DNA of 11,131 bases, taken from UHGV virus genome UHGV-0072311; one strand, 5' to 3'. The notes beneath the pieces were generated by a model. It was given only the letters and a program-made list of their open reading frames with translations. It ran no database searches and was not told where the DNA came from. This stretch comes from a virus. This document shows positions 163-10,772 of this stretch, in pieces (the stretch's first letter is position 1; each line of letters starts with the position of its first letter). The position numbers and the translations under genes were made by a program.

Positions 163-164
163 GT

Positions 165-192
165 CCATAAGAAAGCCCCTCCGGAGAGGGGC
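165..192 (-). terminator. Terminator-like hairpin on - strand (GCCCCTC / CGGA / GAGGGGC, then UUUCUUAU)
   Basis: Seen in sequence: 7-bp GC stem 175-181/186-192 with a tetraloop. On the - strand it is followed by a T-rich but interrupted tract (rc of 165-174). It lies downstream of the pR'-like promoter in the late direction. Confidence 0.3.
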
Positions 193-625
193 TGGAGAGT
201 GGCGCTATGTGCCATTGCATGGTGCCGGGTGCCTCCCGGTGAGTTCAGTATCAGCACCTGAACCCGCACAGAAAGGATAAGGGTCGGTGACAAAACACCA
301 GTTGCTGATTGCCCCTCCGCACAGGGGGATTCACCATGCCAGTTTCTTTTAACAAACTCCCCGCAAACCAGACAACAGTCAACCGCCTGAATTGTGAGGT
401 ATTTAAAAATTTCAACGGGTAACTGATACCCTGCTAATCGCCTGATGATGGATTGTAATCAACAACAGAAAGCACCATTTCTGGCGTTAATTTTATTTCT
501 TTCATCGCTTTACCTTAGGGATAGAGCCTGTTCGCGTAGATATGACAGCCAAGAGCGGAGCGATGTTTCCACCACCATATCTCAGGCCCATATCACTAAG
601 ACTCTTGTTTTGATTGCACGCGAAT

Positions 626-689: not shown

Positions 690-722
690 AATATTATGGC
701 TAAATGGCTAATTGCATGTCAA
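690..722 (-). promoter_or_regulatory. pR'-like late promoter (-35 TTGACA, 18-bp spacer, -10 CATAAT), with the presumed Q-utilisation site
   Basis: Seen in sequence on the - strand: TTGACA (rc of 717-722), an 18-nt spacer, then CATAAT (rc of 693-698). The -35 lies inside the last codons of the Q-like gene (stop codon at 700-702), the same arrangement as lambda Q/pR'. Confidence 0.65.
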
Positions 723-1218
723 GGCTTTTAACAGCAACATGCTTAACTTTCTCAACACGTTTACGCATTTTGAAAGCATTTTGCATTGGTTGGTACAAAA
801 CAAATAATGACGCTTTCAGGATATCGTCAATTTCGTTTCTACAGGTTGCCAGTGAAGGTTTTCTCCATCCCTCGCCACCGCGTCCACACATCTTGCGTGG
901 CTTTGCAGTCTCGTGATAGTAGGATGCAATTGCTCTCTTAGATGAACCATGAGCGTAGTAGCTGAGGAGGATGCCAAAGGCTTTCTTGTCAATGTACATG
1001 ACGGAATCGACGACCTGAGAAATCAACATTCCATCATCATCATTACACATTGGTCTTGTCATAACTCTTCCCGGCTCTACGCTCTCCATGAACTTCGCTA
1101 TTACGCTGCTCATGCGCTTTTCCAGACGACCTGAATAAACCCATGCGCCCCACAGTTCAAGCCAGCCATTCAGCCAATCGTGCTGTTCTTTGGTGAGGTT
1201 TAGTTCTCTTATGCCCAT
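700..1218 (-). CDS. Q: Late-gene antitermination protein Q (QuuD/phage-82-like family, not lambda-Q-like)
   Basis: 172-aa ORF with an N-terminal L-x-x-WGAW motif and a CNDDDGM motif that I recall as typical of the E. coli prophage QuuD-type Q family. It sits directly after ninG, and its 3' end overlaps a consensus promoter followed by a short terminated transcript. SD GGGAG lies 5 nt before the ATG. Confidence 0.75.
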   Translation of the reverse strand: MGIRELNLTKEQHDWLNGWLELWGAWVYSGRLEKRMSSVIAKFMESVEPGRVMTRPMCNDDDGMLISQVVDSVMYIDKKAFGILLSYYAHGSSKRAIASYYHETAKPRKMCGRGGEGWRKPSLATCRNEIDDILKASLFVLYQPMQNAFKMRKRVEKVKHVAVKSLDMQLAI

Positions 1219-1261: not shown

Positions 1262-1867
1262 TCATGCGGCCTCACTTCTGCTGTTTCGCAGGTCTTTGAG
1301 TTTCTGTTGGTACTCTGCCTTGATGGCCCTGCACTCTTCGACAGTCCAGCGATGGCGGTTATGGTTTGATTCGATTTCATCTACTGCTTCCTGCCCGATG
1401 CGGCTAATCAGTTCGACGCGATACGGAACGAGATTTCCGCTTTTGTGCTGGTTGCACACCACGCATTGCTTGTGAATATTGCGTTCATCAAATCGGAGTT
1501 GAGGTGCCGCAGCAGTTGTCCGGTAATGTCCGGCATCCCACTGAGCAGACGTGAGCGTTCCGCACGAGATACATGGTAAGTCGCGGTCTCTTTCTCTGAT
1601 GAAGGCGTTTACGGCTTGTTGGGCTTGTTTAATCCAGTAACTGCGGGGCTTTAAGGCGAGTTTTCGAATCTTCAGTTTATCTTTCTGTTTCTGCTCCTCT
1701 CGTCGTCGTTTCTTCTCTGCTGCTTTTTCCGCTTTTTCGCGTTCTTTACTTCGTCGTTCGAGTGCTAATTGAGTTCCGTGTTCCGGGCAGCACCACCACT
1801 GATTTGAGAATGCCGGGTGAAACCATTCCTTGCATATTTTGCATTTCCTTCGCGCTGGTTTAGCCAT
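1262..1867 (-). CDS. ninG: NinG / Rap recombination-promoting structure-specific endonuclease
   Basis: 201-aa product that closely matches my recollection of lambda NinG, including MAKPARR..., the [13 protein letters not shown] Cys-rich N-terminus and the lysine/glutamate-rich stretch. Its start codon overlaps the upstream gene's stop (TAATG). Confidence 0.9.
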
Positions 1868-2589
1868 TAAGCAGCCTCCCCTGTTACTTTCAGCATTCCG
1901 TTATCGAGCAGCTTTCTGGTCAGCCACTGTTGACCACGTCCGGTGATTTTTGTGGTGAACGATATCTGTATTCCGTGATTTGTGTTGACCGCTGTTTCTT
2001 TCACTGTGAAATAGCCGCGCTCCATATATTCCTGCATTGGCACATTTCGCCGGGAACCTGAAGCGATAAGGATTTTGTGATCGCGCATCCACGCAAACAG
2101 TTTGTTTGGACCAATTCCAACAACCTTTGCATAGTTTCCAATCAAAATTCCGCTGGCCTCGCCAACGCGATCGGCAAACTCAACTTTAGGTGCTGCGAGA
2201 GCAAGCTGTTTCTCCAGTTCAGCCTTCTGGTCTTCAAGGTCGGCCGCAAGGCGCAATGCCTCAGAAAAGGTTTGTGGTATTTTCGCGGTTGCCCCTTCGA
2301 GTTCTCGCCAACGGTCAACAAGACGAGCGGTGAATTCCGGCGACAACTGAGCGACGACAATAATGCTGTCTCGCTTACCTTGTTCGCCTTCGAATATATA
2401 CACGCTTGTGAATTTGTTAGGGCTAATTGTTTGTTTATTTTCAACTTTTTGCATTGGAGGAAGTTGAATCACCCCACGCTTTGCCAGACGTTCTATTGAT
2501 ATTCTGACATTACCGTGTTGGCTTCCCACCAACTCAGCGATTTCAATGCTTGTCATTTTGATGACGTTGCTATTTATCAGCTCATTCAT
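1867..2589 (-). CDS. Phage regulatory protein, Rha-family N-terminal domain plus KilA-C (antirepressor-type) C-terminal domain
   Basis: The N-terminus ([24 protein letters not shown]) resembles the Rha domain, and the C-terminal half (PKVEFADRV...[16 protein letters not shown]) resembles the antirepressor KilAC domain. I chose the ATG at 2589 because GAGAGGA lies 8 nt upstream; the in-frame ATG at 2595 has only a 2-nt spacer. The stop overlaps the ninG start. Confidence 0.7.
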
Positions 2590-2620
2590 TGTCATGTCCT
2601 CTCATATTGAAAATTCAGCA

Positions 2621-2663: not shown

Positions 2664-3341
2664 TCAGTAGCGATGCAGTGAAGGCGGCAACTCTTTGTTC
2701 TTAAGCCTTTCCCATGCCAGAAGGTTCGTCGGCCCGTCAGGCTCATAAATATCTATATCCCGCGTGTGATTAATTAAAACGCCCCTCGCCCTCCCGATGA
2801 TATACGAGAACTCATAGCCGTAGTCGTGGCATATGCCGGAATAGCCAGACTGAATCAGTTTTAATGCGGGATACAACTCACGGAACAATGCCTGTGAGCG
2901 GTTGGCATAATCCCACAGCCATACAAGGCTGTCTGTTTCTTTTGCGGAAAGCCCGTTGAGCTTCTTCTCTTGTTTACCAGTATTTTTCTCGCACTGGCTG
3001 AAATAGCAGTCTTCCAGTTTTTCGAACACATCCCACGCCTGATCGGTTTCTAGCATTTTGGCGTGACGGGCTGCGCCTCGTTCTGTCCAGAGGATGAGGT
3101 GCTTTGCTCGCGGTGCAACTAAGTTACTGTGAGTAACCTTGTTCTTAAATTCCCGCAATTCACCACCCTCCAGTTTAAAGTAGTGCTTACCACAAACAAA
3201 ACGCCCGGCATTGCGCGTATAGTTCACTTTAATGTTGTTGGTCTCAGTGCCGTAAAGTCGTGCCAGTAGTTCGGTAGTGATGACGGGGATGTGGTTATAG
3301 GTAATTGGGGAAAGAGTTTCAACGGAAATTTGAGTCGCCAT
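2664..3341 (-). CDS. ORF6N-domain DNA-binding protein (Roi/antirepressor-like)
   Basis: 225-aa ORF whose N-terminal segment [40 protein letters not shown] fits the ORF6N (KilA-N-related) pattern LYGV.T..LN..V.RN..RF. SD GAGGG lies 8 nt upstream. The Roi assignment is from memory and not verified. Confidence 0.6.
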
Positions 3342-3503
3342 GACAACGCCCTCTGGTTGATGAATTTAACTATCACCACCGTCAGGTGCAAATCTTTGGG
3401 TGGTGAGACGTACAGGGTTTGCACTACCGGATCAACCAACCGGCGAGCCTTTCGGCTCCCCCATACGCCCCACCATAATTCAGATGTGCGTGTGCTTACG
3501 ACA

Positions 3504-3527
3504 ACAAAAAACACGCTCGCGGCGTGT
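3504..3527 (-). terminator. Intrinsic terminator on the - strand (ACACGC-CGCGA-GCGTGT then U5GUUGU)
   Basis: Seen in sequence: 6-bp stem 3511-3516/3522-3527, followed on the - strand by TTTTTGTTGT. It would stop - strand transcription that runs antisense through the + strand island before it reaches the ORF6N gene. Confidence 0.5.
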
Positions 3528-3609
3528 GTCTGTCGCGGTTGAATATCCGGGGTGCAAATCCCGACGCCAGATTTTGCTGGCGTGCGAAGAATATAATCCC
3601 GGATATGTG

Positions 3610-3650
3610 TTGTCGTCAACATACCTTGAATGTATATAACAAATTTGTTA
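3610..3650 (+). promoter_or_regulatory. Candidate promoter (TTGTCG, 17 bp, TATATA) and 14-bp perfect palindrome TAACAAATTTGTTA, a likely operator for the toxin-antitoxin operon
   Basis: Seen in sequence: -35-like TTGTCG at 3610-3615 and -10-like TATATA at 3633-3638. The perfect palindrome at 3637-3650 overlaps the -10 and the first toxin ATG, which is the usual layout for autoregulation by an HTH antitoxin. Confidence 0.4.
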
Positions 3651-3991
3651 TGTTTACTCTCATGAACTACATTATCGAATACTACAGTGACGAGGTTGAA
3701 GCTGAGATCCTTTCTCTTCCTGAGACCTTACAAGCCCGGTACATTCGGTACACGGAGAAAATGCGTATTTACGGAGCTAATCTTGGTTCCCCGCATACAG
3801 AGGCATTTGGCGACGGTTTGTTTGAAATCCGCCTTAAGGGCTCGGAAGGCATAGGGCGTGTTTTTTACTGCACGCTAAAAGGAAAGCGAATCATTATGTT
3901 GCATAGCTTTGTAAAGAAAACGCAAAAAACTCCACCTGCCGAGCTTAGAAAAGCTGAAACCAGAATGAAGGAGGTTAAGCATGACTGGTAA
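3650..3991 (+). CDS. Type II toxin, RelE/ParE superfamily (Gp49/HigB-like 'addiction module killer')
   Basis: The product carries the signature ...DGLFEIRLKG...GRVFYC...RIIMLHSFVKKTQKTPPAEL... typical of Gp49-like toxins. The toxin gene is upstream and its stop overlaps the antitoxin start by 11 bp. The start is uncertain between the ATG at 3650 and the in-frame ATG at 3662; neither has a clear SD. Confidence 0.75.
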   Translation: MFTLMNYIIEYYSDEVEAEILSLPETLQARYIRYTEKMRIYGANLGSPHTEAFGDGLFEIRLKGSEGIGRVFYCTLKGKRIIMLHSFVKKTQKTPPAELRKAETRMKEVKHDW

Positions 3992-4289
3992 ACGTACCCC
4001 ACCTACCATGACACACGATGAAATGGTAGAAAAAATGTTGTCTAACCCCGCAGTAAAAGCAGAATACGACGCCATCGCCGATGAATTCGCACTACTTGAT
4101 GAAATGCTGGCAGCACGAAAAGAAGCTGGCTTAACCCAGGCTGAAGTTGCTGAACGTATGGGAACAAAAGCGACTGCGATAACCAGAATGGAAAGCAATC
4201 TTGCATCAGGTACAAGCGGCCCATCATTTGCCACACTGAAAAAATTCGCCCGTGCTACAGGGAAAAAACTCCAGATCCGCTTCGTTTAA
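3981..4289 (+). CDS. HTH (XRE-type) antitoxin, HigA-like 'addiction module antidote'
   Basis: 102-aa product with the helix-turn-helix motif GLTQAEVAERMGTKATAITRME and a C-terminus ending LKKFARATGKKLQIRF, typical of antitoxins paired with Gp49/HigB-like toxins. A strong SD GGAGG lies 6 nt before the ATG. Confidence 0.8.
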   Translation: MTGKRTPPTMTHDEMVEKMLSNPAVKAEYDAIADEFALLDEMLAARKEAGLTQAEVAERMGTKATAITRMESNLASGTSGPSFATLKKFARATGKKLQIRFV

Positions 4290-4301
4290 CTCTCCACTAC
4301 C

Positions 4302-4326
4302 GCGCCGTCATTCTGGCGGCGCTTTA
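4302..4326 (+). terminator. Weak terminator-like hairpin after the antitoxin gene
   Basis: Seen in sequence: 8-bp stem with one G-U pair (4302-4309/4315-4322) followed by TTTA. The U-tract is short, so this is low confidence. Confidence 0.3.
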
Positions 4327-4343
4327 CCCCAGAGAAATATCAA

Positions 4344-4589
4344 TCACCGGATTACCACATCCCACTCCGGCTCCTGCCATCTCAAATCCGGTGAATCATT
4401 TCTCTCAGGAATAACCATTACGTCCTTTTCCCTTCGCTCCCTTTCTATCGCCATCACAGCCAATGCTGCAACCATGATGTATTTTTGTTCGTCGGTTCCT
4501 GTTTCATAACGACGCATGAGGGTAAACTCGGGGCGATCAGTAACCTCAATGATTTCGTTAATTTCTTTAATTTCGCGAGGAATATCCAT
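4344..4589 (-). CDS. Hypothetical acidic protein (81 aa)
   Basis: The ORF begins MDIPREIKEINEIIEV... and has an excellent SD, AAGGAG, 8 nt upstream on the - strand. Its ATG overlaps head-to-head with the ATG of the DUF4145 gene at CCATGG (4586-4591). I recognise no family. Confidence 0.45.
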   Translation of the reverse strand: MDIPREIKEINEIIEVTDRPEFTLMRRYETGTDEQKYIMVAALAVMAIERERREKDVMVIPERNDSPDLRWQEPEWDVVIR

Positions 4590-5262
4590 GGGTTTAGTCT
4601 CCTTTGATATCACATGCCCGCACTGTTTAAAAGAGCGAGCTGTTATTGAGGCATTTGCCGAAAAACAAATTGAAAAAACACCTTTTTTTAACGTCGCTTT
4701 TGTATGCAGAAGTTGTCATCGAGGAGGTGTTGCTATTGTTGAAATCCCATCAGACCACTATCACGGTCCCATGGCGGAAAGCCAGAAAAAAGACCTCGAT
4801 ATTCTGATTTCAGGAAATAGCCAGTACCGTTTCCGCAAGATCTATCCTGTGGTCAAAAAAATTACCGCACCAGAATATACGCCCCCGGTTGCAGACCGTA
4901 CTTTTGTTGAGGCAAAAGAGGATTTACAGAGGAGGCGGTACGACACAGTGGTTATTCTTTGTCGCAGAGTCCTCGATATCTCCACGAAAAAACTGCTCGG
5001 CGATGAAGCAGGAAAAGAATCGCTGTCGCAACGTATTCAGATGATTTACAAAAAAGGCCTGATCACTGAACAGATGAAGGAATGGGCTCATATTGTACGA
5101 ATTGATGCCAATAAAGCAGTTCATACAGATGAAGTTTTCACACCAATTGAGGCAAGCCAGATCCTGAGTTTTACCGAAATGTTTTTAGTCTACGCCTTCA
5201 CTCTGCCTGCAATGGTGGAAGCCAGACGTGAACAAAAAAGATCAGATTCAGCCTCTATATGA
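4588..5262 (+). CDS. Zinc-ribbon plus DUF4145-like (HEPN-superfamily-like) protein; candidate abortive-infection/defence effector
   Basis: The N-terminus has two Cys pairs (CPHC ... CRSCH), consistent with a zinc ribbon. The C-terminus carries EWAHIVRIDANKAVH followed by a hydrophobic helix, matching the DUF4145 pattern wA..iR..GN.aaH as I recall it. SD GAGG lies 5 nt before the ATG at 4588; the upstream in-frame ATGs at 4516 and 4549 lack one. Confidence 0.65.
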   Translation: MGLVSFDITCPHCLKERAVIEAFAEKQIEKTPFFNVAFVCRSCHRGGVAIVEIPSDHYHGPMAESQKKDLDILISGNSQYRFRKIYPVVKKITAPEYTPPVADRTFVEAKEDLQRRRYDTVVILCRRVLDISTKKLLGDEAGKESLSQRIQMIYKKGLITEQMKEWAHIVRIDANKAVHTDEVFTPIEASQILSFTEMFLVYAFTLPAMVEARREQKRSDSASI

Positions 5263-5284
5263 ATCACTTTTCTGAACACGTAAG

Positions 5285-5305
5285 CCCCCGTCATTCACGA
5301 CGGGG
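5285..5305. other. GC-rich hairpin between convergent genes (CCCCGTC-ATTCAC-GACGGGG), no U-tract
   Basis: Seen in sequence: 7-bp stem overlapping the stop codon of the - strand gene and lying between the convergent DUF4145 and HTH genes. With no U-run on either strand it is not a canonical intrinsic terminator. Confidence 0.3.
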
Positions 5306-5726
5306 AGAACATCAATCCCTCTGCACTCCCTCGCCAGAATGCCAGCACACGCTGCATCGTTTCGCTGTTACGGCACTCGCGACAAATTGTGTTGTAGCGT
5401 CTGTCGTAGCGCCGTATTTCCCCATCTGGTAATGCCCGGATAAGGTCTGGATCAACGACAACCGGTTTCTTCGACTTTGCCCTTGAGAGTTTTTTGCGGG
5501 CATTTTGCCAGTCCTTACGAGCCTGTTCAGACGGGAATACTCCGTAACCGGAATTGTAAACATCACCACTGGCGGCCAGCTCCATGCATAAACGACCGAC
5601 AGACGCATGACTGACACCAATTTCATCCGATAACTGCCGAATCGTGCCTCGTCCGTTAAGGCGTACGAATTCCACGATCAGCCCCTTAATTTTTTCCCGC
5701 TCTTCTGGTGTAAATGCTCTTGTCAT
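5295..5726 (-). CDS. Hypothetical HTH-containing protein (143 aa)
   Basis: The ORF has an SD GGAGG 5 nt upstream of the ATG at 5726; the GTG at 5732 used by the ORF track is less likely. A helix-turn-helix-like segment (GTIRQLSDEIGVSHASVGRLCMELAASG) is present, and the C-terminus has a CRECRN motif. It sits in the nin-equivalent region. Confidence 0.55.
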   Translation of the reverse strand: MTRAFTPEEREKIKGLIVEFVRLNGRGTIRQLSDEIGVSHASVGRLCMELAASGDVYNSGYGVFPSEQARKDWQNARKKLSRAKSKKPVVVDPDLIRALPDGEIRRYDRRYNTICRECRNSETMQRVLAFWRGSAEGLMFSPS

Positions 5727-5741
5727 AAGCACCTCCGGAGA

Positions 5742-6512
5742 TCACTTTGTTGTCGGTGAATGAACCGGAATATCAGCAATCGAACTGAAAATATCCCGGT
5801 GTTTATTCAGCTCCCGCAGCGCGGCGCAGACTCGCTCCCACTTCTGAACATCACTTTTCGCCCTGCGCAGCGCCAGGTTTGCCCTGCGCAGGGACGGAAA
5901 AATCAGCTCATCTGCTTGCGTTTCGGTAAACGATGGCAACGACTGCACAATGTCCGCCACAGTTTCTGTTTTAATTTCTTCCTGTGTTGCGGCTTCCCGG
6001 ACTGGTAACGCAGCACCTGCTGGCTGAGGAAAGGCCTTACCATCATTTTCCGTTACCGGCGCGGTTTTCGGATCTGCTGGTAAATTACCCCCCGGCATGC
6101 AGTAACGAAATTTACCGTTCTGATTAACGCGTGCCAGCCGCCCCGTTGCGGTTACCACCGCCAGCGTGGAAGCAACCTTGCGAGTGGTAACTCCGAACTT
6201 ACCCGCTATTTCTTCACAGGTTTTAGCCCCCTCCTGAGAGATAAACTCAATCATCATGTCAGCGCTAACTTTTGGAGCGACCTCTTCGGTCAGCATATCC
6301 TGTGTTTCAGATTTTACTGGCCGCTCTTCGGTTACCCCAGCTTCACCTTCGACAGCCAGAAACCAGGTGTGACCCGTTTTATCAACAACGCCATTTTTTT
6401 TGAGCTCCCACAGTTCGTTGAGAACTTCTTCACGGCTGATATCAAGCCGCGCCGCCAGTTCAACAGAATTGGCTTTTCCCATCGCTTTCAGTGCATGCAA
6501 TACGGTTTCCAT
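5742..6512 (-). CDS. Hypothetical protein with two winged-helix-like segments (256 aa)
   Basis: Two segments resemble wHTH recognition helices (SVELAARLDISREEVLNELWELKKNGVV and TCEEIAGKFGVTTRKVASTLAVVTATGRLARV). It lies immediately downstream of the DnaC-like gene with a 25-bp gap. I recognise no specific family. Confidence 0.55.
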   Translation of the reverse strand: METVLHALKAMGKANSVELAARLDISREEVLNELWELKKNGVVDKTGHTWFLAVEGEAGVTEERPVKSETQDMLTEEVAPKVSADMMIEFISQEGAKTCEEIAGKFGVTTRKVASTLAVVTATGRLARVNQNGKFRYCMPGGNLPADPKTAPVTENDGKAFPQPAGAALPVREAATQEEIKTETVADIVQSLPSFTETQADELIFPSLRRANLALRRAKSDVQKWERVCAALRELNKHRDIFSSIADIPVHSPTTK

Positions 6513-6537: not shown

Positions 6538-7278
6538 TCACATACCCTGACGTCCAACGTTTGACCGCCAGCTCTCCCAGTTAAAATTCACCCAACGACC
6601 ACCGTTCATGGTCATCCGGTCCATAATCCTCTCACCAAGAAGCGTGCTCATTGCGGCATGATTCAGGTTTGTCAGCATCCCGACACTGCGCAGTGATGCC
6701 GTCCGGCGGTCAACAATCTGGTGCAGTACCACCTGCTCGTTTTTCGTCTCACGCTGGATGCCAATTTCGTCAAGAACCAGGAGGTCCACTTCGCACAGTT
6801 CACGCAAAAATTTTTCCCCTGACAGTCCGTCGTCATAGCTGGCATGTAACGCGCTCATCACATCCGCCACGGTGACCACTATCACGGATTTACCGGCCTT
6901 CAGCAGACGATTACCCACAGCCGCCGCCAGATGATTTTTTCCGGTTCCCGGATTCCCGCTGAACACGAAGTTTGTATAACCGGTCATCAATTCATCGACA
7001 ATGGATTTCGCCTGGCTCAGAGCATGGCGCTGACCGTCGTTCTGCACCCGGTAGTTCCCGAATGAGCACTTCCTGTGAAGCGGCTGGATGCCCGAACGAT
7101 TCAGGATTTTTTCAACCCGCGTCTGGTGATTCTGGCGGTTAACTTCCTCGCTGCGCTTCCGGCCCTCAGCCAGTTGCCATTCCCGCCATTCGTCGGTCGT
7201 CCGGAACGGTGCTGCCACGTGCGGTGGTGCCAGACGGCGCACCCGTTCAAGAATCCCTCCTGTCGAAATGTTTTTCAT
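6538..7278 (-). CDS. DnaC-type replicative helicase loader (AAA+ ATPase, IstB-like)
   Basis: The product is closely similar along its length to my recollection of E. coli DnaC, including the Walker A motif GNPGTGKNHLAAAVG, the SGIQPLHRKCSFGNYRV region and the C-terminal MLTNLNHAAMSTLLGERIMDRM. SD GGGGG lies 8 nt upstream. Confidence 0.9.
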   Translation of the reverse strand: MKNISTGGILERVRRLAPPHVAAPFRTTDEWREWQLAEGRKRSEEVNRQNHQTRVEKILNRSGIQPLHRKCSFGNYRVQNDGQRHALSQAKSIVDELMTGYTNFVFSGNPGTGKNHLAAAVGNRLLKAGKSVIVVTVADVMSALHASYDDGLSGEKFLRELCEVDLLVLDEIGIQRETKNEQVVLHQIVDRRTASLRSVGMLTNLNHAAMSTLLGERIMDRMTMNGGRWVNFNWESWRSNVGRQGM

Positions 7279-7284
7279 GGCTGA

Positions 7285-8367
7285 TTACCCCCTGAAACCC
7301 GGCGGAATTTCGGTGTCCGGTTCAGAAATGTGATTCACGCAACGCAGGCTGACTGCGCCAGCCTTCGGCAGCGACCACGGATTTTCGAAATTCCTGTTCG
7401 GGCCAAAAAACGTCGATGCCTGCTGAACAAATTCAGTTCCCGCTTTCCCGGTAGCCTCCAGGTATCTTGCGTAACGCCTCACGCCATCCAGCACGACATC
7501 CGGTGACACCCCTTCGCGTAATCTGGCCCTCCAGGCATTGAACGCGGATTTCTTCGGGTTTGACCCTGCCCGATGCGGATATTCACGCCAGACCCGTTCG
7601 AACACGTCAGGATAATCAACTCGTCCCGCAGACGGTCCCGGCATCGCCCGGGTTAACCCAATCGGCTTCCCGCTCATCGCGGAATCGGCTTCAGGCTGCT
7701 GCGGTTGGCGTTGTTGCTCCGGTTCGACGATCAGCACCTGCTGCACACAACGCCCGGAATCTGCTTCCGGTGTCGTGCCATCTGGTCCTGGACGTTCAGT
7801 CAGAACAGGACAAAAATCCCCCTGTGGGTCCGTGGCGATTTTTTCGCCATGGACCAGAAGGGTTTTATCCCTTTCCTGTTCCTGTTCCTGTTCCTGTTCT
7901 TGGCTTGAAAGGGGCTCTGAAGGGGCTTCAATTTTCCGACATGATTCACGTCTGACATCCAGGTGGAAATCATCCTTATATCTATCATAAAAGGATGATA
8001 AAAAAGGATTTTCCAGCAACGCGGAATATTCATTTCTTACCCCAGCACAACGGTTATCGCCAGGTTTCAGCGATTCACCAACCTGCCATGCTGCCATTTC
8101 ATGCACCCATACAACCTCAGAATCATGGTCATAGCTGCAAAAACCAGCCTCGCAAGCCATTTGAAGCCCCTTAGAAGCCCCTTCAGGAGCAAGTCCGGTT
8201 TCGTGAGCAATGTACAAAACAGGCAGGTAATAAAGGCCCAGCATATTGGAATGAGGCGAGGTCATCATATACAACGCCACTACCATACATTCCGGACCAG
8301 ACTTCCTTAGTTTTCGCCCTGTATCGCCTAACCAGAACTGAGGTGAAATTGTTGCGTAATTACGCAT
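7285..8367 (-). CDS. Putative replication initiation / replisome-organiser protein (non-lambda-O type)
   Basis: The position (after the cII-like gene, directly before the DnaC-like loader with a 6-bp gap) matches the lambdoid O/P slot. The C-terminal motif FERVWREYPHRAGSNPKKSAFNAWRARL resembles the F..FW..YP.K..K..A..AW motif I recall from phage replication initiators. The gene contains an (EQ)n linker and AT-rich palindromic DNA. The family assignment is not verified. Confidence 0.6.
   Translation of the reverse strand: MRNYATISPQFWLGDTGRKLRKSGPECMVVALYMMTSPHSNMLGLYYLPVLYIAHETGLAPEGASKGLQMACEAGFCSYDHDSEVVWVHEMAAWQVGESLKPGDNRCAGVRNEYSALLENPFLSSFYDRYKDDFHLDVRRESCRKIEAPSEPLSSQEQEQEQEQERDKTLLVHGEKIATDPQGDFCPVLTERPGPDGTTPEADSGRCVQQVLIVEPEQQRQPQQPEADSAMSGKPIGLTRAMPGPSAGRVDYPDVFERVWREYPHRAGSNPKKSAFNAWRARLREGVSPDVVLDGVRRYARYLEATGKAGTEFVQQASTFFGPNRNFENPWSLPKAGAVSLRCVNHISEPDTEIPPGFRG
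7626..7718. repeat. Copy A of a ~70-bp direct repeat (copy B at 8398-8466); copy A carries a 23-bp internal insertion
   Basis: Seen in sequence: ccgcagacggtcccgg...aacccaatcggcttc...aggctgctgcggttgg(c/t)gttgttgct is shared at about 90 percent identity. Copy A lies inside the initiator coding sequence; copy B lies in the spacer upstream of it. Confidence 0.8.
7872..7899. repeat. Hexanucleotide microsatellite (CCTGTT)n, about 4.5 copies, encoding an (EQ)n linker on the - strand
   Basis: Seen in sequence: ttcctgttcctgttcctgttcctgttc at 7872-7899, translating to QEQEQEQEQE within the initiator protein. Confidence 0.9.
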
Positions 8368-8515: not shown

Positions 8516-8587
8516 GCCCTGCCTGAATATCAGATATTCATCAGGATTTGCTCAGAACGTCCGGCCCCAACCGGACGTTTTTTATTT
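8508..8587 (+). ncRNA. oop: oop-like antisense RNA overlapping the 3' end of the cII-like gene
   Basis: Seen in sequence: GGATTTGCTCAGAACG followed by a perfect 9-bp stem AACGTCCGG / CCCCAA / CCGGACGTT and TTTTTTATTTG at 8556-8587, with an upstream hairpin TGAATAT-CAG-ATATTCA at 8524-8540. Order and sequence closely resemble lambda oop RNA and its terminator as I recall them. The 5' end and promoter are not mapped. Confidence 0.6.
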
Positions 8588-8826
8588 GCATGAACGTTAA
8601 TGGCATGCTGGAAAGCCCGGCTGATCGGACTGATATCAGATGCCATCTGGAACGCGCATAAAATCGCCGCGATGTATCGCCAGTCGGTACGACTGACCTT
8701 CGATTCATGGCAGCCAATCATCTTTGCCAGTCCCCTTTGCGTCAGAGCTGACAGGTTGATGAGTAAATCTGTTTCTGCGCGATCAACGTCACGCTGTGAT
8801 AGTTTGCTGTAACTTGTTTGTGTCAT
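8530..8826 (-). CDS. cII: CII-family transcriptional activator (non-lambda allele)
   Basis: The position (first gene after cro/nutR) and the C-terminus ...ANKKRPVGAGRSEQILMNI resemble lambda CII (...TNKKRPAATERSEQIQMEF). The N-terminal two-thirds differ from lambda. An antisense oop-like terminator is embedded in the 3' end, as in lambda. Confidence 0.7.
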   Translation of the reverse strand: MTQTSYSKLSQRDVDRAETDLLINLSALTQRGLAKMIGCHESKVSRTDWRYIAAILCAFQMASDISPISRAFQHAINVHANKKRPVGAGRSEQILMNI

Positions 8827-8964: not shown

Positions 8965-9165
8965 TTATGCAGTTGTTTTTTTGTTACTTGGGAAGGGCTT
9001 TATTTCTTCCGCATAAACGCTTCCATCAGCGTTTATAGTTAAAAAAATCTTTCGGCCTGCATGAATGGCCTTGTTAATCGCGCTTTGATATACGCCGAGA
9101 TCTTTAGCCGTCTTGGTTTGCCCAAAGCGTATTGCATAATCTTTCAGGGTTATGCGTTGTTCCAT
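8965..9165 (-). CDS. cro: Cro repressor (lambda-type)
   Basis: 66-aa product essentially identical to lambda Cro as recalled ([64 protein letters not shown]). SD AAGGAGG lies upstream. Confidence 0.95.
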
Positions 9166-9262: not shown

Positions 9263-9979
<717 letters not shown>

Positions 9980-10010: not shown

Positions 10011-10772
10011 ATGACACAGTTTCAACTTGCATTAATCGCTAGAGAAGTTGATGGAGAAGTCATCCATCTTCGCACCAAAGACGGATACATCAATGCCACC
10101 GCGATGTGCAAGTCTGCGGGGAAGCTACTTGCTGACTATACACGACTAAAAACAACACAAGATTTTTTTGATGAATTATCACGCGATATGGGGATTCCCA
10201 TATCGGAGTTAATTCAATCATTTAAAGGCGGAAGAGCAGAGAATCAAGGGACTTGGGTTCATCCAGACATCGCAATTAATTTAGCTCAGTGGCTATCTCC
10301 AAAATTTGCAGTGCAAGTATCGAGATGGGTGCGTGAGTGGATGTCAGGTGAAAGAGCGCCTGCCGAACTCCCTATCCACCTTAAGCGGTATATGACAAAC
10401 CGAGGCAGAGTTCCTCATACGCACTTTTCTATGCTTAATGAACTGACGTTTAACTTGGTTGCGCCACTTGAACAGGCCGGATATACGCTGCCAGAAAAAA
10501 TGGTCCCTGATATTTCAGAGGGTAGGGTTTTCTCGCAATGGCTCCGTGACAACCGGGGGGTTGAGCCGAAGACATTCCCAACATATAACCATGAGTACCC
10601 AGATGGCCGGACATTCCCGGTACGTCTATACCCAAACGAATATCTTGCAGATTTCAAACAACACTTCAACGAAGTGTGGCTGCCTCAGTACGCTCCTAAA
10701 TATTTTGCTGAACGAGACCAAAGGGCATTGACGTTGATTGAGAAAATCATGCTACCTGACCTTGATTCCTAA
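10011..10772 (+). CDS. KilA-N-domain protein in the cI operon, at the position lambda uses for rexA/rexB
   Basis: 253-aa ORF starting 32 bp after the cI stop with SD AGGA. The N-terminal ~115 aa fit the KilA-N pattern (GYINATAMCKSAGKLLADYTRLKTTQDFFDEL...GTWVHPDIAINLAQWLSPKFAVQVSRWV). I recognise no family for the C-terminal ~135 aa. A strong terminator follows. Confidence 0.75.
   Translation: MTQFQLALIAREVDGEVIHLRTKDGYINATAMCKSAGKLLADYTRLKTTQDFFDELSRDMGIPISELIQSFKGGRAENQGTWVHPDIAINLAQWLSPKFAVQVSRWVREWMSGERAPAELPIHLKRYMTNRGRVPHTHFSMLNELTFNLVAPLEQAGYTLPEKMVPDISEGRVFSQWLRDNRGVEPKTFPTYNHEYPDGRTFPVRLYPNEYLADFKQHFNEVWLPQYAPKYFAERDQRALTLIEKIMLPDLDS

Follow-up and report, generated by a model that had tools for sequence, protein, structure and literature searches.

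The virus genome UHGV-0072311 raises the question of whether a block of plus-strand genes, lying against the direction of the early operon, is one acquired defence island or a place where separate units meet. The window analyzed here, the whole stretch of 11,131 nt, is a Stx-type lambdoid E. coli prophage, and the block sits between the DUF977 and ORF6N genes. The original prediction described it as a single horizontally acquired, autonomously expressed moron, combining a toxin-antitoxin pair with a HEPN-like protein. We give a probability of about 0.6 to a different reading, in which the 3.6–5.3 kb region is a recombination hotspot of three independently assorting cassettes, including a predicted defence RNase. 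The three cassettes would be a HigBA-like toxin-antitoxin pair, a small minus-strand gene, and a plus-strand gene for a zinc-ribbon and HEPN protein, and the hotspot would lie between the replication/DUF977 module and an ORF6N antirepressor module with its own IsrK/C4 leader and promoter.

Mosaic boundaries and distribution of the block

Mosaic boundaries were obtained by pairwise blastn against related loci. Homology on the ORF6N side stops at 3619–3621 (at 3605 in phage PA28), the toxin-antitoxin cassette is matched over 3602–4291, a hairpin together with the small gene over 4296–4585, and the DUF4145 cassette over 4588–5283; the joints lie at about 3602–3621, 4291–4296, 4585–4588 and 5283. 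The contents vary as well. The slot of the toxin-antitoxin pair is occupied in other strains by RelE/HigA, by ParD with a hypothetical protein and HigA, or by the window's cassette with an orphan HigA, and the small gene and DUF4145 gene that follow these alternative cassettes are 96–99.9% identical. The phage phiSTEC1589-Stx1c keeps the small gene, and another gene replaces DUF4145. PhiR12_3 (locus L011, 2256–4928) carries the ORF6N gene, IsrK/C4, the toxin-antitoxin pair, the small gene and DUF4145 near int and not in the nin region, while VT2phi_272 (locus L012, 2591–4570) has the ORF6N gene and a toxin-antitoxin cassette near int, without the small gene and DUF4145, and retains the hairpin alone (4296–4321). 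From these two arrangements, the plus-strand cassettes travel with the antirepressor module. A 71-nt remnant of the antitoxin 3' end (4221–4291), 94–96% identical, lies between the genes of the ParD-type cassette (L003 3456–3526; L012 4179–4248), and many O157 and Stx2a prophages carry it as the trace of an earlier exchange of cassettes.

Because the cassette boundaries are separate and the contents vary, the region is better described as a hotspot of separately mobile units than as one island. A self-contained three-gene island, acquired at once, in which the toxin-antitoxin pair and the HEPN protein cooperate between their own terminator and hairpin, is very unlikely, even though its genes are adjacent and on the same strand, the whole region is accessory, and some toxin-antitoxin cassette usually precedes DUF4145 in E. 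coli. The window's toxin-antitoxin cassette is 82% identical where DUF4145 is 96–98% identical, and its type varies beside the same DUF4145 gene. The nine non-E. coli loci with gene context had no toxin-antitoxin gene adjoining DUF4145 (the wider sets give neighbour strand only). The three plus-strand genes of the original prediction, toxin, antitoxin and DUF4145, are real, but they are not contiguous, since a minus-strand gene at 4344–4589 splits them. The statement that the early operon runs on the minus strand from cro to Q apart from this block holds for all early-operon genes, whereas the block itself also contains a minus-strand gene. What had been proposed as the left bracket terminates the isrK RNA of the adjacent module, as described below.

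To gauge how rare the region is, 5,426 complete E. coli genomes were counted. Positions 3300–5450 were present to 80% or more in 19 genomes, the small gene with DUF4145 in 36 and the window's toxin-antitoxin cassette in 13, compared with 1,880 genomes for the flanking DUF977 and ORF6N genes. The plus-strand block is missing at this position from many related lambdoid prophages that share the DUF977 or ORF6N genes, which is the pattern by which a moron is recognized, and only small co-directional genes follow DUF977 in other prophages that carry it. These counts, the absence from relatives and the cassette exchange show that the region is accessory and horizontally exchanged, and in this the original prediction was right. 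The block is 99.9–100% identical to Escherichia phage PhiR5_2, and the wider 3300–5450 segment shares about 98% identity with PhiR5_2 and with prophages of human-derived E. coli strains such as G1/2. Phage lambda carries ren roughly at the position of this hotspot. In base composition the block differs only a little: GC is 44.4% in the block vs 47.8% and 51.4% in the flanks, within the 41–55% spread of the window's own genes, and neither GC content nor GC at third codon positions sets the block apart.

The DUF4145 protein and its divergent partner

The DUF4145 gene starts at ATG 4588, with GAGGA 6 nt upstream. The gene model first proposed, an open reading frame (ORF) at 4516–5262 (+), merely extends upstream of this supported start and was rejected. 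Across 37 homologues (37–71% identical; many from Enterobacterales and a few from other Proteobacteria), C10, C13, C40 and C43 are invariant, as are R171, D173, N175 and H179. The N-terminus was modelled as beta strands with a predicted local distance difference test score (pLDDT) of 89–97 and gave weak profile matches to RPB9-type zinc ribbons. The C-terminal DUF4145 domain has the HEPN fold and the catalytic Arg/His. Anantharaman et al. placed DUF4145 in the HEPN superfamily and noted zinc-ribbon fusions and viral members (PMC3710099).

[quoted passage not shown] The window protein shares its layout of an N-terminal Cys4 zinc ribbon, a conserved linker and a C-terminal DUF4145 HEPN domain, and it is of similar size (224 vs 219 aa). 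Both deviate in the same way from the canonical HEPN spacing R-x4-6-H, with R171-x7-H179 in the window protein and R146-x7-H154 in RAZR, within the motif R-I-x-x-N-x-A-V-H. Comparison with a RAZR-family alignment by hhalign gave a probability of 96.4% (E 1.4e-9, 127 columns), covering the linker and HEPN only, and identity is only about 21% over the aligned part. In direct searches, the PADLOC PD-T7-4 match was partial and weak (E 0.0022, 15.5 bits), and the match to RAZR chain 9y9c_OA was also weak (E 0.16), with R-I-x-x-N-x-A-V-H aligned. We conclude that the DUF4145 protein is homologous to RAZR/PD-T7-4 in its linker and HEPN domain, belongs to a distinct clade, and is a predicted HEPN RNase.

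In Atlantibacter, Yersinia and Citrobacter, each relative of this gene stands alone, with all its neighbours on the other strand; the usual place is between the replication genes and ninB, and some relatives adjoin the small terminase gene. The opposite-strand placement was also seen in nine Enterobacterales genome loci. For viral contigs, 54 distinct DUF4145 relatives were taken from IMG/VR (41 MG-type and 13 MA-type), and the nearest ORF was on the other strand in 47/53 cases on the left and 48/52 on the right. In E. coli S1-CAM-02-A, an insertion sequence (IS) of the IS3 family lies in the gene (locus L124, 2715–4344), leaving a 137-aa truncated ORF followed by ISEc10; the gene is dispensable, judging from this one strain.

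These observations bear on whether the protein could instead serve the phage's own cycle, as a DNA-binding regulator or a host-takeover RNase. Its family carries the PHROG label 'DNA binding protein' (phrog_1305), and a zinc ribbon could bind nucleic acid. We nevertheless regard such a role as highly improbable, in view of the conserved HEPN catalytic residues and homology to a characterized defence RNase, the orientation against both neighbours, shared by about 90% of relatives, the patchy distribution, and the disruption by an IS element.

The minus-strand gene beside DUF4145 encodes an 81-aa protein and was missed in the original prediction; gene callers miss it in several genera, and the Atlantibacter copy was uncalled by the gene finder. 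A word-indexed protein search returned only E. coli relatives and an exhaustive phmmer search only six clusters, and the family became visible by tblastn on related loci. Homologues are 42–52% identical in Yersinia, Atlantibacter, Enterobacter, Symbiopectobacterium, Tatumella and Rosenbergiella and 32–44% identical in Photorhabdus. Those of Atlantibacter, Enterobacter, Symbiopectobacterium, Tatumella, Rosenbergiella and Photorhabdus carry the motif DRPEF-L-QRYE and lie directly upstream of, and divergent from, DUF4145. The first 52 residues are 52% identical to a 71-aa Yersinia ORF (E 3e-17). The ratio of nonsynonymous to synonymous substitutions (dN/dS, Nei-Gojobori) was 0.33 as the median of 102 cross-genus pairs, all below 1, so the small gene is real and under purifying selection; the value for DUF4145 by the same method was 0.16. 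The E. coli copies have 5, 9 and 11 variable sites at codon positions 1, 2 and 3, too few to inform. An AlphaFold2 model (pLDDT 74.7) shows helices at residues 3–16, 20–30 and 33–55 and a disordered tail; it had no Foldseek match in the PDB (best E 3), and the protein itself matched nothing in Pfam, NCBIfam or PADLOC. An imperfect inverted repeat of 30 nt (4324–4353 / 4385–4414, 77% complementary) spans the 3' end of the gene.

The palindrome CATG at 4587–4590 contains the start codons of both genes, which thereby overlap head-to-head. The small partner was found in 33 of the 41 MG-type relatives, and the CATG overlap was present in all 33. This overlap is kept over at least seven genera although the DNA is too diverged for blastn alignment, and the two genes move jointly, being found in the nin region, near int, and beside different neighbours. 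The small gene and DUF4145 are thus a conserved divergent pair with overlapping start codons. It could be argued that the small gene is an ordinary early-operon gene and the overlap a mere footprint of DUF4145 insertion with no regulatory meaning, since it is co-oriented with the pR operon, stands alone in phiSTEC1589-like prophages, and lambdoid mosaic joints commonly fall at gene boundaries. The exactness of the overlap in every paired relative and the joint movement of the pair to different genome positions make this doubtful.

The pair might also be read as an addiction module that stabilizes the prophage, with the small protein as antitoxin and the HEPN protein as toxin, and not as phage defence. 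HEPN RNases are often toxins, and both the frequent pairing and the purifying selection on both genes would fit. On balance, we consider this unlikely: the genes are divergent and not co-transcribed, which is atypical of type II toxin-antitoxin pairs, the partner is missing in 21 of the 54 relatives, the small gene persists without DUF4145, and the small protein has no similarity to known antitoxins. According to a review, RAZR overexpressed alone is not toxic (PMC13434031).

The toxin-antitoxin cassette and the flanking modules

The first cassette is a HigBA-like type II toxin-antitoxin operon encoding a predicted toxin. As in HigBA-type systems (Gp49 PF05973 / HTH_3; S. pneumoniae HigBA, PDB 6af3), the toxin gene comes first and is overlapped, by 11 nt, by the gene of a helix-turn-helix antitoxin; the Pfam Gp49 match is strong, and a palindrome lies upstream. 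The toxin differs in being distant from the solved HigB proteins, the nearest being that of PDB 6af3 (E 7e-5); PGAP labels it 'RelE/ParE family toxin'. Between the window and the L005 cassette, where overall identity is 82% and the left flank differs, the control region ahead of the toxin gene is about 95% conserved. It contains the perfect 16-bp palindrome ATAACAAATTTGTTAT (3636–3651), a candidate operator for autoregulation of the pair. No plus-strand promoter for the pair reached the scan threshold, a candidate lying below it, and no Shine-Dalgarno sequence precedes the toxin ATG. We infer that the pair works on its own, for addiction or abortive infection, and regulates itself at this palindrome. 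About 19 nt at 3602–3620, GATATGTGTTGTCGTCAAC, are common to the ORF6N-leader module and the toxin-antitoxin cassette and hold overlapping -35 elements of the leftward isrK promoter and the candidate rightward toxin-antitoxin promoter; they may be a recombination joint for cassette exchange. The long ORFs 3524–3991 (+) and 3224–3622 (-) were rejected as genes, as they run through the IsrK/C4 RNAs or merely extend beyond a supported start.

On the left, the original prediction placed a minus-strand terminator of the island at 3504–3527. A terminator scan did find a stem-loop with a T run there (3511–3527, tail to about 3501), but it coincides with the 3' end of the isrK match and is the terminator of an IsrK-like RNA in the ORF6N module, not a bracket of the block. 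The isrK and C4 RNAs occur upstream of ORF6N-type genes in six related loci besides the window, and the assignment to the ORF6N module follows from phage PA28, in which the isrK/C4 leader is present and the plus-strand block is not. The a1/b1 element, just below its gathering score in the window, exceeds it in three related loci. The promoter-like sequence TTGACG-18-TATATT predicts a transcription start near 3583, where the isrK match begins, and is for that reason the candidate isrK promoter. An upstream ORF of 14 codons, MVGRMGEPKGSPVG (3432–3476, minus strand), begins at the 5' end of the C4 match and has two AUGs 12 nt apart. Annotated small ORFs over 3506–3628 in phage records (phrog_20442, phrog_34583) probably mis-annotate the IsrK/C4 RNA genes. 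In related prophages, sRNA-Xcc1 Rfam matches (L005 474–562 and L006 619–709; about 69 bits vs gathering score 53) adjoin other antirepressor genes.

Judged by its sequence, this leader is of the P1-immI/Gifsy-1 antirepressor type. In P1 immI (c4-icd-ant), a C4 RNA controls ant. In Gifsy-1, with the layout PisrK-isrK-orf45-anrP, read-through of the IsrK terminator yields the antirepressor mRNA and the short IsrK activates its translation, which is mediated by two AUGs of orf45 with 12 nt spacing (PMC4825925). The window has the same succession of promoter, IsrK-like RNA with terminator, C4-type RNA and antirepressor-like gene, with the ORF6N gene analogous to AnrP; its upstream ORF has 14 codons vs 45 in orf45. 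This likeness concerns the left neighbour and lies outside the plus-strand block.

On the right, a hairpin at 5285–5305 had been taken as the other bracket. A 7-bp hairpin exists, but neither strand provides a U tract, the stop codon of DUF977 falls within it, and it is outside the DUF4145 cassette, which by homology extends only to 5283; DUF977 genes in other contexts lack it. The promoter-like elements ascribed to the block are not above chance: two sites were found vs 3.1 expected, the better one points leftward to isrK, and neither lies upstream of DUF4145. Overall, the original observation was partly confirmed and its interpretation partly supported. The coordinates of the features are collected in Table 1.

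Table 1. Genes, RNAs and signals in the window, from left to right
Feature	Position	Strand	Evidence or remark
Q	700–1218	-	
NinG	1262–1867	-	
Rha/ANT	1867–2595	-	
ORF6N + P22_AR_C antirepressor-like, left neighbour	2664–3341	-	Pfam ORF6N E 3.9e-20, P22_AR_C E 1.5e-23; phrog_377 'anti-repressor Ant'
C4 antisense RNA (RF01695), leader of ORF6N gene	3396–3480	-	74.4 bits vs gathering score 45
IsrK-like small RNA (RF01394)	3506–3583	-	75.4 bits vs gathering score 50, full-length model match
c4 a1/b1 target	3596–3544	-	42.2 bits, just below gathering score 46.7
Sigma-70-like promoter TTGACG-18-TATATT, candidate isrK promoter	3590–3619	-	10/12 matches
Conserved control region of toxin-antitoxin cassette	3602–3661	+	
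Toxin, Gp49/HigB-like, RelE/ParE superfamily, 109 aa	3662–3991	+	Pfam Gp49 94.2 bits vs cut-off 23.9
HTH_3 antitoxin, 102 aa	3981–4289	+	Pfam HTH_3 43.4 bits; phrog_1373
GC-rich 9-bp hairpin then TTTA, weak terminator candidate, cassette boundary	4302–4322	+	Free energy (dG) about -19 with flanks
81-aa three-helix protein gene	4344–4589	-	PGAP coding sequence; phrog_8371 E 7e-56
Cys4 zinc-ribbon + DUF4145/HEPN protein, 224 aa, RAZR-like	4588–5262	+	
7-bp hairpin spanning DUF977 stop codon (5295–5297)	5286–5305		dG -14.5
DUF977 ('LygF', 'Ren-like'), right neighbour	5295–5732	-	Pfam DUF977 E 1.1e-25; phrog_142
DUF1627	5742–6512	-	
DnaC/IstB-like	6538–7278	-	
O-like replication gene	7285–8367	-	
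cII	8530–8826	-	
cro	8965–9165	-	
cI	9266–9979	+	

Some features further from the block were also recorded. The O-like replication protein matched no Pfam family and includes a low-complexity stretch of the form (QE)n, and its orthologue in strain G1/2 (L001) is annotated as frameshifted. Directly downstream of cI, a gene at 10011–10772 (+) encodes a KilA-N protein (Pfam E 8e-27), the C-terminal half of which matches the PADLOC BstA model (E 2.5e-20). These matches suggest a BstA-like gene for abortive infection, sitting in the classical moron slot next to cI, and the prophage would therefore carry at least one further defence-type gene. A full-length Rfam match to the STnc100 small RNA lies downstream of Q at 163–368 (-), with 143 bits vs a gathering score of 47. 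A literature search on 'LygF' returned nothing relevant.

Proposed mechanism and relation to known systems

In the hotspot reading, the lysogen would produce the RAZR-like protein, which would sense a protein of an infecting phage through its zinc-ribbon domain and oligomerize. The HEPN RNase would then cleave cellular RNA and the infection would be aborted, while the toxin-antitoxin pair would act as a separate addiction or abortive module. Because each ribosome-binding site lies inside the coding sequence of the other gene, the 5' parts of the small-gene and DUF4145 mRNAs must overlap as antisense. Since the small gene points the same way as the pR operon, read-through in the lytic state should express it; such transcription would run against both DUF4145 and the toxin-antitoxin pair and would turn them down while the prophage itself grows lytically. 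Autonomous expression of the block and its coupling to the lytic/lysogenic state, as originally proposed, are plausible from this geometry, and we infer both the defence function and the coupling.

Several points weigh against this account. The direct matches to RAZR are weak, the profile alignment leaves the zinc ribbon outside, and the PHROG label of the family points elsewhere. RAZR is described as a single-gene system, whereas the window's clade usually has a partner gene. The pairing is not obligatory, since each partner occurs without the other: the small gene is missing in 8 of the 41 MG-type and all 13 MA-type relatives, and it occurs without DUF4145 in about 12 E. coli genomes. Finally, the sequence ahead of DUF4145 yielded no sigma-70 promoter in the window, nor one at a conserved position in its relatives across nine genera.

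A more tentative proposal, to which we give rather low odds, is that the 81-aa protein is a self-immunity or regulatory partner of the RAZR-like RNase and that the CATG overlap works as an excludon-like toggle. Excludons, divergent genes with overlapping 5' transcripts, have been described in Listeria. The overlapping start codons here would likewise force 5'-complementary mRNAs. With such a toggle, the RNase gene would be on and the small gene silenced in the lysogen, and early-operon read-through in the lytic state would silence the RNase by antisense transcription. The small protein, made from the same read-through, might in addition block triggering of the RNase by the phage's own ring-shaped proteins, such as portal. 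If this were true, the lone small gene of some phages could serve as an anti-RAZR counter-defence.

These results place a distinct, widespread prophage clade beside the recently solved RAZR abortive-infection RNase and show that a small partner gene, not noticed before, usually accompanies it, the two start codons overlapping in an unusual arrangement. The arrangement allows one to ask how a temperate phage can carry an abortive RNase that senses conserved phage ring proteins and still spare its own lytic growth. In Stx-type phages, the hotspot of cassette exchange could be mined for more defence genes. The annotation is also corrected in three respects: what had been taken for a terminator or for small ORFs is an RNA leader, the start codon of DUF4145 had been misplaced, and the small gene had been missed by gene callers.

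As an accessory part of a prophage that combines a toxin-antitoxin pair with a defence-type HEPN gene, the region is of an already known kind. Like the moron and defence hotspots represented by rexAB or BstA next to cI and by the P2 hotspots, this region is accessory, varies in content, and holds counter-transcribed defence-type genes; unlike them, its slot lies between the replication and the nin/antirepressor genes, its cassettes are individually exchangeable, and it shows no clear promoters or terminators of its own. DS-38, a validated E. coli defence protein with a HEPN domain and a zinc finger, aligns with PD-T7-4 through its HEPN domain and not its zinc finger (DefensePredictor preprint, bioRxiv 10.1101/2025.01.08.631726). 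The window protein, compared with DS-38 by description only, shows the same HEPN-only alignment to PD-T7-4. The relatives of RAZR proper that were sampled lie beside integrases, co-directional with them and without a comparable partner, whereas the window's clade is found as an opposite-strand gene inside lambdoid prophages, usually with the divergent small partner. What is new is this distinct RAZR-like clade with a conserved divergent partner and overlapping start codons.

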